This document shows positions 10,301 through 14,531 of a DNA stretch of 64,000 bases, piece by piece. Positions within the stretch are counted from its first letter, which is position 1, and every line of letters begins with the position of its first letter. The DNA is from Eledone cirrhosa (Eukaryota). The notes beneath the pieces were generated by a model. That model ran no database searches. It was not told the DNA's origin and saw only the letters and a list, made by a program, of their open reading frames with translations. The translations under genes were made by a program, and so were the position numbers. Location: positions 15,314,001 to 15,378,000 of the forward strand of contig OZ024752.1 in NCBI GenBank assembly GCA_964016885.1, written 5' to 3'.

Positions 10301-12302
10301 CCTCTATTCTCCAGAAAGCCAGACAAGGAATATTGAACTAGTTTCGTTGTTGTTACAACTCATCAGCAATATTTACCTATCTTCCGGCCTCTCTAGAGAA
10401 TCGTAAAAGCACATATCGTTATATGCTTTTTCTATGAAAATTAGTAGTGGGCAGACTAACTTGCATAGAGTGTGAGTAAGTACCGGTTCAACGGAGACGA
10501 TAAAAACAAATAACGAAACAAAATTAAATTTCGTTTCGTTTGTAACTCACTTTTGTATGACTGACGCTTAAACAATTAAGTTAAAGATGTACATCCATAT
10601 ATGTATACTGAAATACTAGTATGTATATGAATACACACACGTATACATATGTAGGTGTACCAAGTTTTTTCACTGGTCACTTTACTGTGAGTGGCCAGCT
10701 ATTCTGTATGTAAACACACAGACAAACCGGTTTTTAGAGTCATACTGGTTTTTGAGGAAACACCTCTCCTCTATTCTCCAGAAAGCCAGACAAGGAATAT
10801 TGAACTAGTTTCGTTGTTGTTACAACTCATCAGCAATATTTACCTATCTTCCGGCCTCTCTAGAGAATCGTAAAAGCACATATCGTTATATGCTTTTTCT
10901 ATGAAAATTAGTAGTGGGCAGACTAACTTGCATAGAGTGTGAGTAAGTACCGGTTCAACGGAGACGATAAAAACAAATAACGAAACAAAATTAAATTTCG
11001 TTTCGTTTGTAACTCACTTTTGTATGACTGACGCTTAAACAATTAAGTTAAAGATGTACATCCATATATGTATACTGAAATACTAGTATGTATATGAATA
11101 CACACACGTATACATATGTAGGTGTACCAAGTTTTTTCACTGGTCACTTTACTGTGAGTGGCCAGCTATTCTGTATGTAAACACACAGACAAACCGGTTT
11201 TTAGAGTCATACTGGTTTTTGAGGAAACACCTCTCCTCTATTCTCCAGAAAGCCAGACAAGGAATATTGAACTAGTTTCGTTGTTGTTACAACTCATCAG
11301 CAATATTTACCTATCTTCCGGCCTCTCTAGAGAATCGTAAAAGCACATATCGTTATATGCTTTTTCTATGAAAATTAGTAGTGGGCAGACTAACTTGCAT
11401 AGAGTGTGAGTAAGTACCGGTTCAACGGAGACGATAAAAACAAATAACGAAACAAAATTAAATTTCGTTTCGTTTGTAACTCACTTTTGTATGACTGACG
11501 CTTAAACAATTAAGTTAAAGATGTACATCCATATATGTATACTGAAATACTAGTATGTATATGAATACACACACGTATACATATGTAGGTGTACCAAGTT
11601 TTTTCACTGGTCACTTTACTGTGAGTGGCCAGCTATTCTGTATGTAAACACACAGACAAACCGGTTTTTAGAGTCATACTGGTTTTTGAGGAAACACCTC
11701 TCCTCTATTCTCCAGAAAGCCAGACAAGGAATATTGAACTAGTTTCGTTGTTGTTACAACTCATCAGCAATATTTACCTATCTTCCGGCCTCTCTAGAGA
11801 ATCGTAAAAGCACATATCGTTATATGCTTTTTCTATGAAAATTAGTAGTGGGCAGACTAACTTGCATAGAGTGTGAGTAAGTACCGGTTCAACGGAGACG
11901 ATAAAAACAAATAACGAAACAAAATTAAATTTCGTTTCGTTTGTAACTCACTTTTGTATGACTGACGCTTAAACAATTAAGTTAAAGATGTACATCCATA
12001 TATGTATACTGAAATACTAGTATGTATATGAATACACACACGTATACATATGTAGGTGTACCAAGTTTTTTCACTGGTCACTTTACTGTGAGTGGCCAGC
12101 TATTCTGTATGTAAACACACAGACAAACCGGTTTTTAGAGTCATACTGGTTTTTGAGGAAACACCTCTCCTCTATTCTCCAGAAAGCCAGACAAGGAATA
12201 TTGAACTAGTTTCGTTGTTGTTACAACTCATCAGCAATATTTACCTATCTTCCGGCCTCTCTAGAGAATCGTAAAAGCACATATCGTTATATGCTTTTTC
12301 TA
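7303..12302 (-). repeat. Tandem array of a 467-bp hammerhead-containing unit (retrozyme-like), ~10.7 copies
   Basis: Period 467 (same ORF at 7422, 7889 ... 12092); no differences seen between units; hammerhead on the minus strand of each unit. Confidence 0.95.
7527..7571 (-). ncRNA. Minimal type I hammerhead ribozyme, first of 11 minus-strand copies (every 467 bp)
   Basis: RNA sense: aauauug-CUGAUGA-guugu-aaca-acaac-GAAA-c-ua-g-UU-caauauu; 7-bp stem I, 5-bp stem II, palindromic AACUAGUU stem III. Confidence 0.9.
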
Positions 12303-14531
12303 GAGAGGCCGGAAGATAGGTAAATATTGCTGATGAGTTGTAACAACAACGAAACTAGTTCAATATTCCTTGTCTGGCTTTCTGGAGAATAGAGGAGAGG
12401 TGTTTCCTCAAAAACCAGTATGACTCTAAAAACCGGTTTGTCTGTGTGTTTACATACAGAATAGCTGGCCACTCACAGTAAAGTGACCAGTGAAAAAACT
12501 TGGTACACCTACATATGTATACGTGTGTGTATTCATATACATACTAGTATTTCAGTATACATATATGGATGTACATCTTTAACTTAATTGTTTAAGCGTC
12601 AGTCATACAAAAGTGAGTTACAAACGAAACGAAATTTAATTTTGTTTCGTTATTTGTTTTTATCGTCTCCGTTGAACCGGTACTTACTCACACTCTATGC
12701 AAGTTAGTCTGCCCACTACTAATTTTCATAGAAAAAGCATATAACGATATGTGCTTTTACGATTCTCTAGAGAGGCCGGAAGATAGGTAAATATTGCTGA
12801 TGAGTTGTAACAACAACGAAACTAGTTCAATATTCCTTGTCTGGCTTTCTGGAGAATAGAGGAGAGGTGTTTCCTCAAAAACCAGTATGACTCTAAAAAC
12901 CGGTTTGTCTGTGTGTTTACATACAGAATAGCTGGCCACTCACAGTAAAGTGACCAGTGAAAAAACTTGGTACACCTACATATGTATACGTGTGTGTATT
13001 CATATACATACTAGTATTTCAGTATACATATATGGATGTACATCTTTAACTTAATTGTTTAAGCGTCAGTCATACAAAAGTGAGTTACAAACGAAACGAA
13101 ATTTAATTTTGTTTCGTTATTTGTTTTTATCGTCTCCGTTGAACCGGTACTTACTCACACTCTATGCAAGTTAGCCTGCCCACTACTAATTTTCATAGAA
13201 AAAGCATATAACGATATGTGCTTTTACGATTCTCTAGAGAGGCCGGAAGATAGGTAAATATTGCTGATGAGTTGTAACAACAACGAAACTAGTTCAATAT
13301 TCCTTGTCTGGCTTTCTGGAGAATAGAGGAGAGGTGTTTCCTCAAAAACCAGTATGACTCTAAAAACCGGTTTGTCTGTGTGTTTACATACAGAATAGCT
13401 GGCCACTCACAGTAAAGTGACCAGTGAAAAAACTTGGTACACCTACATATGTATACGTGTGTGTATTCATATACATACTAGTATTTCAGTATACATATAT
13501 GGATGTACATCTTTAACTTAATTGTTTAAGCGTCAGTCATACAAAAGTGAGTTACAAACGAAACGAAATTTAATTTTGTTTCGTTATTTGTTTTTATCGT
13601 CTCCGTTGAACCGGTACTTACTCACACTCTATGCAAGTTAGTCTGCCCACTACTAATTTTCATAGAAAAAGCATATAACGATATGTGCTTTTACGATTCT
13701 CTAGAGAGGCCGGAAGATAGGTAAATATTGCTGATGAGTTGTAACAACAACGAAACTAGTTCAATATTCCTTGTCTGGCTTTCTGGAGAATAGAGGAGAG
13801 GTGTTTCCTCAAAAACCAGTATGACTCTAAAAACCGGTTTGTCTGTGTGTTTACATACAGAATAGCTGGCCACTCACAGTAAAGTGACCAGTGAAAAAAC
13901 TTGGTACACCTACATATGTATACGTGTGTGTATTCATATACATACTAGTATTTCAGTATACATATATGGATGTACATCTTTAACTTAATTGTTTAAGCGT
14001 CAGTCATACAAAAGTGAGTTACAAACGAAACGAAATTTAATTTTGTTTCGTTATTTGTTTTTATCGTCTCCGTTGAACCGGTACTTACTCACACTCTATG
14101 CAAGTTAGTCTGCCCACTACTAATTTTCATAGAAAAAGCATATAACGATATGTGCTTTTACGATTCTCTAGAGAGGCCGGAAGATAGGTAAATATTGCTG
14201 ATGAGTTGTAACAACAACGAAACTAGTTCAATATTCCTTGTCTGGCTTTCTGGAGAATAGAGGAGAGGTGTTTCCTCAAAAAACAGTATGACTCTAAAAA
14301 CCGGTTTGTCTGTGTGTTTACATACAGAATAGCTGGCCACTCACAGTAAAGTGACCAGTGAAAAAACTTGGTACACCTACATATGTATACGTGTGTGTAT
14401 TCATATACATACTAGTATTTCAGTATACATATATGGATGTACATCTTTAACTTAATTGTTTAAGCGTCAGTCATACAAAAGTGAGTTACAAACGAAACGA
14501 AATTTAATTTTGTTTCGTTATTTGTTTTTAT
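12298..14531 (+). repeat. Inverted continuation of the 467-bp array, ~4.8 copies
   Basis: Reverse complement of the preceding array; only two substitutions seen (13175 T>C, 14283 C>A); ends in (TA)n. Confidence 0.95.
12323..12367 (+). ncRNA. Minimal type I hammerhead ribozyme, first of 5 plus-strand copies
   Basis: aatattg CTGATGA gttgt aaca acaac GAAA ctag tt caatatt. Confidence 0.9.

Follow-up and report, generated by a model that had tools for sequence, protein, structure and literature searches.

A head-to-head hammerhead repeat array in Eledone cirrhosa: probable insertion of a retrozyme by Penelope-like two-ended priming

The window analyzed here is a stretch of 64,000 nt from Eledone cirrhosa (assembly GCA_964016885.1, contig OZ024752.1, forward-strand positions 15,314,001 to 15,378,000). 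Between two TA-rich tracts, it contains an array of a 467-bp hammerhead ribozyme repeat that runs forward, reverses at a pivot and continues in inverted orientation (Table 1). The forward arm consists of 10.71 copies of the unit in 5,000 nt, with unbroken periodicity and no variant between units, and the inverted arm consists of 4.78 units in 2,233 nt, with two substitutions, at 13175 and 14283. At the pivot, the two arms overlap by 4 nt (TCTA). When the unit is numbered such that u1 is window position 7303, the forward arm stops at u330, and the inverted arm opens at u293 and finishes at u396. An earlier note, made from the letters of the sequence, described this pivot as a self-priming snap-back hairpin, and its description of the anatomy (about 10.7 forward units, then about 4.8 inverted units, with a built-in hairpin at the turn) is accurate. 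The exact pivot junction occurs once genome-wide; no reads that span it were seen, and its support is the assembly. None of the sequencing runs listed a strand-change joint, but with a listing threshold of 2%, which a junction at one locus does not reach, this outcome carries no information on the pivot.

Table 1. Features of the inverted hammerhead repeat array, in window positions
Feature	Position	Strand	Description
Left TA-rich target tract	7142..7302	.	
Arm A	7303..12302	-	RNA sense minus, plus strand is cDNA sense; begins at site A (u1), adjoining the left TA tract
Variant u416A	7718..7718	+	In all units of both window arms; in 1 of 77 sampled loci
Possible fold-back structure	12262..12298	+	4-nt partner 12262-12265, 7-nt bulge, hairpin 12273-12298
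Pivot	12299..12302	.	u330 joined to u293; preceded by a 33-nt unpaired stretch
Arm B	12299..14531	+	RNA sense plus; outer end at site B (u396), adjoining the right TA tract
Minimal type I hammerhead	12312..12383	+	One per unit; palindromic stem III; predicted cut between 12360 and 12361
Tail	14458..14531	+	72-74 nt separating sites A and B; at one end only; holds a 13-bp hairpin
Right TA-rich target tract	14532..14760	.	

The hammerhead became visible in an E-value scan with Rfam HH9 (37.7 bits, E 1e-7), at a score below the gathering score of 52; at the gathering threshold, Rfam gave no match in the window. It lies on the minus strand in the forward arm and on the plus strand in the inverted arm, that is, on the strand directed away from the pivot, so that the plus strand of the forward arm is cDNA sense, as stated in the earlier note. 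The predicted cut, between u232 and u231, is distant from both array ends, which had also been noted before. The core is intact in every unit that spans it. The unit itself is non-coding, with a GC content of about 0.35 and a longest stop-free frame inside the array of 62 aa, and the 467 bp hold no open reading frame (ORF) for a reverse transcriptase (RT) plus a GIY-YIG endonuclease. The folding of the monomer is far more stable than that of shuffled sequences (z −7.1), a property that does not demonstrate a circle.

In the genome of 3.0 Gb, the hammerhead core is present in 5,130 exact copies, and there are 1,972 exact junctions of TA with u396, together with 173 of TA with u3 of this subfamily. 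Three samples of loci were drawn from this family. Set 1 comprised 34 loci from 150 listed of 256 unit matches, plus the window, and is skewed toward long arrays. For Set A, the u3 junction list was followed in its own order to a total of 60 loci, with those already sampled skipped. Set B consisted of 20 loci from early in the u396 list, reached after skipping one that was already sampled and one in the same stretch. Eight loci of Set 1 that had no two adjacent arms (L033, L041, L042, L048, L049, L051, L053, and L062) were dropped before scoring, as was the first element of L047; the second element of L047 was typed A although its first 33 nt diverged.

The elements consist of two arms inverted about a pivot, between TA tracts, and their outer ends are fixed: one lies at site A (u462–u3) and the other at site B (u396–403), 72–74 nt apart. 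In Set A, 43 of the 60 loci were A-B by rule, and two more (L073 and L083, with B arms shorter than 30 nt) were A-B by eye; the remainder consisted of one A-A locus (L068, which was omitted from the junction script), three loci with other ends, two open loci, and nine in which the stretch showed no inverted arm. The Set B loci finished at A in 13 cases and at B in none, with one other end, two open loci and four without an inverted arm. Among the scored loci of Set 1, 24 of 26 were A/B; L064 failed the end rule and has, by eye, an 11-nt A arm, and the dropped locus L049 may be a second A-A case. A one-sided tail bounded by two fixed ends was found at 43/60 and 13/20 of the anchored loci. The short-read contigs of run X1 also contain TA-joined loose ends of both types, at 11901 (site B, 12 contigs) and at 11970 (site A, 4 contigs). 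The ends of the window array, u1 and u396, obey the same rule. Target priming in TA tracts, as proposed in the earlier note, is supported. However, the circularly permuted ends that it predicted are not seen, and the right end of the array, thought to have joined its TA tract at a free point, lies exactly on site B. The strict pairing of one A with one B, and the common template of both arms described below, are quantified here.

The first 100 of the 5,130 hammerhead matches include 11 mixed-strand clusters, some of them at loci counted elsewhere, and in all 11 the cDNA sense was directed inward. This polarity is symmetric and is therefore silent on which arm was made first. The prediction that the cDNA-sense arm comes first cannot separate the models, since both arms are cDNA-sense inward. 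Fixed ends together with random polarity had been named as a pattern that would refute the snap-back reading; the ends are indeed fixed, but the polarity is non-random.

As the TA-anchored sets were selected on TA, they were not counted for target bias. Of 24 A/B copies found without the TA pattern, 22 lie in TA-rich tracts and two in AT-rich unique DNA. Target duplications of 13 and 14 bp were observed at two copies in non-TA DNA (L045 and L050; 2/67), and they extend a few bases into the element at either end, as expected if both 3′ ends primed. In TA tracts, including those of the window locus, a target duplication is not definable; an apparent 32-nt duplication flanking the window array sits in a degenerate TA repeat and was not counted.

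The two arms of a locus are much more similar to each other than the arms of different loci. Arm-versus-arm differences within loci amounted to 69 in 20,673 positions (0.33%), mostly in single units, compared with 1.16% between loci; unit identity within but not between loci had been predicted correctly. In 38 loci with at least three units, 23 private variants were fixed in all units (in 13 loci, with seven of the variants in one divergent locus), 87 variants were singletons, and 11 were partial, "private" referring to a sample of about 77 out of some 2,000 loci. The window provides one of the fixed private variants, u416A, which accounts for less than 0.3% of the depth in run X1. Because new variants are fixed across whole arrays, a monomer bottleneck followed by re-amplification is indicated, which a circle would supply. 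Both arms thus appear to have been copied from one RNA template, and the earlier proposal of a template copied many times round is supported. With 11 partial variants, a comparison for mirror symmetry within loci was uninformative.

Several loci have internal peculiarities. L037 has three variants that are each present once in both arms, just one of them at the mirror position; arm B of L118 has an alternating two-unit pattern; and a CA microsatellite has grown within one unit of an array arm at L040:5434–5563. At L119:1331–2900, the inverted arm changes at a shared motif between the 467-bp family and a second hammerhead family of 472 bp, which is about 63% identical, spans about three units there and has relatives in L072, L111, and L055. 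A comparison with window positions 11836–12345 found a near-identical unit in run X4, as a 497-nt self-closing contig with seven differences. The matches in X4 and X6, which carry other-organism labels, are of low depth and may reflect relatives, contamination, or transfer. Runs of 16 organism labels contain 18–72% of the query words; three contig runs were compared, two of low depth.

The best reading of these data is a real, young, non-autonomous retrozyme insertion with Penelope-type anatomy. More specifically, we assign a probability of roughly 70% to the interpretation that the array is a single insertion of a non-coding hammerhead repeat, a retrozyme without long terminal repeats (non-LTR retrozyme), that was moved by a Penelope-like RT-endonuclease through two-ended priming. 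The genomic evidence gives good support to two-ended priming at fixed sites; a circle, a dimer, and a partner element would complete the scheme. Tandem transcripts would cleave themselves and circularize to a 467-nt monomer. The enzyme, probably a dimer, would make a staggered cut in TA-rich DNA, as the target sites suggest. The 3′ ends would prime cDNA at site A and at site B of the RNA, the latter 72–74 nt downstream of the former, through 1–4 nt of microhomology; the corresponding array ends are directly observed. Each RT would then roll round the same RNA, here for 10.7 and 4.8 turns, a step suggested by the shared private variants. Finally, the two same-sense cDNAs would be joined head to head through 1–5 nt of microhomology or a short insertion, and then filled in, and the signature of such a join is seen at the junctions. 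The pivot would thus be the record of the join, and the fixed ends the record of the two priming sites.

One alternative keeps the two-ended priming but replaces the circle by an uncleaved linear multimer, transcribed from a homogeneous source array. It touches only the nature and the copying of the template, so that its probability overlaps that of the interpretation just given, and we consider it unlikely, though worth keeping in mind. Autonomous elements in this genome form partial tandems, and arrays of more than 13 units exist that could serve as sources. However, the excess of variants fixed in every unit (23) over partial ones (11) indicates the monomer bottleneck and re-amplification, and u416A, although present in all units of the window, is almost private to it.

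A second alternative, of similarly low probability, concerns the join. Priming would again occur at A and B, but at the window locus the end of the long cDNA would have folded back via its 4-nt match beside the hairpin and been extended, and would then have annealed to the complementary, B-anchored cDNA. The loop in the window is short (33 nt) and lies in the longer arm. The hairpin 12273–12279/12292–12298 is the minimum free energy (MFE) structure of the DNA (−5.1 kcal/mol), and a structure in which the last 4 nt are made to pair with 12262–12265 lies only 0.3 kcal/mol above the MFE, with an ensemble pair probability of about 0.1. Yet 56 of the 467 possible ends in the unit fold back as well as the window pivot does. 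Among junctions without inserted bases, an overlap of at least 1 nt was found in 46/50, with a mean of 2.1 nt versus 0.75 nt by chance; an overlap of at least 4 nt, as in the window, is uncommon (7/50), but an intermolecular join would leave an identical overlap. Bases were inserted at 17 of the 67 junctions, and some of them repeat nearby sequence. Short microhomology plus inserted bases resemble the products of microhomology-mediated end joining. The pivot positions gave a divided picture. In Set 1, with its long arrays, six of the 24 pivots are no more than 20 nt from symmetry, where 2.4 would be expected (p 0.025, in one of 10 tests), whereas in Set A the offsets are uniform, with four versus 3.9 expected within 20 nt and six versus 7.6 within 40 nt. 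Pivots at hairpins, which the earlier note expected as a rule, are therefore not a general feature. Furthermore, the loop lies within the longer arm in only eight of the 15 pivots within 45 nt of symmetry. Such annealing could also explain why L119 changes family at a point of homology. In any case, because the right end of the window array lies at site B, a second priming or cutting event is needed.

A further reading is the pure snap-back of the earlier note: a single priming event, fold-back of the cDNA, extension as second strand, and joining of the flank at a free point or, in a variant of this reading, at an endonuclease-cut one. It would account for the shared haplotypes and the inward polarity, and it is geometrically possible at the window locus and in 45/67 copies. 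Endonuclease resolution of an intermediate has been suggested as the origin of the tail in Penelope elements (PMC8557442). However, copy-back requires the second arm to be contained in the first, and therefore the A/B ends forbid a band of length differences. Exactly such differences were observed in 23 of the 67 A/B copies (20/43 in Set A), or in 22 of the 67 by a stricter test, and arm A is the longer one in 31/67, so that either arm can be longer. In some short copies (L074, L082, and L114 among them), arm A lacks most of the sequence of arm B, and a loop of at most 60 nt is possible in 9/67 copies only. The pairing of one A with one B is also not predicted by this model. The arm lengths correlate in Set A (rho 0.42, p 0.005, n = 43), which fits coupled synthesis, though copy-back would yield it too. 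Altogether, the pure snap-back is refuted as a general rule, and we regard it as very improbable at the window locus, where it survives only if site B is the cut site. A fold-back read or assembly artefact is more improbable still: the inverted repeat is long and nearly perfect, with a junction supported by the assembly alone, but 67 loci share this anatomy, each between unique flanks and with the fixed ends, the two flanks differ, short-read contigs confirm both end types, and an artefact would not stop at site B.

Several observations weigh against the retrozyme insertion by two-ended priming on a circle. Circularity, cleavage, and expression of the RNA are predictions from the DNA. In vitro, hammerhead cleavage was dispensable for a Penelope-type protein and unprocessed RNA was the main substrate, and the start site was not homologous to the cut DNA (PMC11167929), whereas microhomology of 1–4 nt is proposed here. 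The excess of near-symmetric pivots in long arrays hints at fold-back joins, and arm lengths often differ by much more than would be expected of two RTs that follow one another round a single circle. In L119 most of the second arm belongs to the other family, so that two RNAs were used there. Finally, no partner with sites A and B was found in a search that covered two abundant young families, with ORFs of 780 and 785 aa, neither of which is similar to the unit in the DNA compared; for the 785-aa family, three inverted pairs were compared. Those two families likewise offered no homology between the unit and the pseudo-long terminal repeat (pLTR) of an autonomous partner.

The element with the 785-aa ORF, which is young and autonomous, nevertheless follows the same two-end rule. 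Among 131 listed matches inspected by eye, 11 minus/plus ORF pairs within 10 kb were found, and no plus/minus pairs. In all three pairs examined, one arm ends 151 nt and its partner 264 nt past the hammerhead core, both ends lie in TA tracts, and the tail is 113 nt long. Pfam gave no match for the ORF; its assignment is based on a weak similarity to an RT-bearing ORF (E 6e-5) and on a GIY-YIG match in a neighbouring fragment (E 2e-4). As it has no sequence match to the unit, this element is a parallel case rather than a proven partner. The 780-aa and 785-aa families (L139:3053–5392 and L172–L174), assigned as RT plus GIY-YIG, are both young and very abundant: their top copies are 97–100% identical in protein, and a first look gave 17,947 and 40,105 candidates.

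A third, small head-to-head family with a hammerhead-like core is present in TA tracts of the window itself, at 19058–19513 and 57964–58448. Its arms are about 180–190 nt long, the tail, on one side, measures about 78 nt, and the pivot is near-symmetric in each of the two copies. The copies are 77% identical to each other, and the arms are 98.7% and 91.8% identical within a copy. In this family, the template could have been a linear RNA whose 5′ end was reached by both cDNAs. Sequence like this family was also seen, by eye only, at 4000–4420.

The minus strand directly left of the array (4550–7160) carries a broken Penelope-like element of greater age, with an RT motif at about 7125–7135, a C-terminal frame at 5314–6084, and a hammerhead core at about 5034. 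About 680 bp of TA-rich sequence (6333–7010), lying between the copies of a direct duplication of about 33 bp, interrupt it. On the plus strand, 22950–24800 contains what we take, from its motifs, to be a broken LINE-like RT fragment.

The priming at both target ends has a parallel in LINE-1 twin priming, which shares the use of one RNA by both ends, inward cDNAs, junction microhomology, and a target-site duplication. In LINE-1, the second priming occurs at a variable internal site, the arms have no sequence in common, and the RNA has a poly(A) 3′ end. In the window family, by contrast, both sites are fixed, the arms copy the same unit repeatedly, a poly(A) tail is lacking, and inversion is the rule. 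The term twin priming appears, for LINE-1, in bioRxiv 10.1101/2021.12.20.472354; an application to Penelope elements or retrozymes was not found in a search of mostly open-access papers, and older Penelope reviews may contain such a model.

The closest known relatives are the metazoan non-LTR retrozymes, for which circular RNA templates have been proposed to yield tandem cDNA (PMC7229834) and which phylogeny ties to pLTRs (bioRxiv 10.64898/2026.07.22.740005). Like the window family, they are dispersed over many loci as tandem arrays of a non-coding unit of a few hundred bp, which has a GC content below 50% and carries a minimal type I hammerhead; their target-site duplications, where present, are longer than 4 bp, as are the two found here. 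A circular RNA template and a Penelope partner have been proposed for them. Inverted arms, fixed two-site ends, and pivots are not described in the available text of either paper, and the word "inverted" does not occur in the main text of PMC7229834. In contrast to these accounts, the insertion anatomy itself points to Penelope machinery in the window family. Endonuclease-containing (EN+) Penelope-like elements share partial tandems, an adjacent inverted 5′-truncated copy, a one-sided tail, a bias toward TA microsatellites, a hammerhead in the repeat, and two RT starts that bound the tail (PMC8557442; PMC11167929). The window family differs from them in having no ORF, a tail of 72–74 nt rather than 30–40, and arms of up to 13.6 units. 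For Penelope-like elements, inverted 5′-truncated copies, an often one-sided tail of 30–40 bp, and a microsatellite bias were described, with a cause called undefined (PMC8557442). A Penelope-type protein was later reported to cut and extend both strands in vitro, with two RT starts bounding the tail and a predicted dimer (PMC11167929). The available text of that paper gives no explanation of the inverted copy, and the available text of PMC11722881 adds nothing further on inversions.

Tentatively, and at slightly less than even odds, we suggest that two-ended priming by a dimeric enzyme is the normal route of EN+ Penelope elements, which on a ribozyme circle becomes double rolling-circle reverse transcription from one RNA. 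If so, two-ended priming would account jointly for the inverted copies and the one-sided tail of Penelope elements, and a whole inverted satellite of several kilobases would be written in one event. The link between retrozymes and Penelope enzymes has so far been based on co-occurrence and sequence similarity; with about 2,000 young copies and a short unit, each insertion of this family can be read for its start sites, arm lengths, junction, and template haplotype. For the existing in vitro system, the predictions are that A and B are used on opposite target strands and that more than one unit is copied from a circle. Taken together, A and B starts with a head-to-head join could explain, in a way open to testing, why Penelope-type insertions have the inverted shape that has long been a puzzle, and they offer a one-step route to satellite arrays and long inverted repeats.

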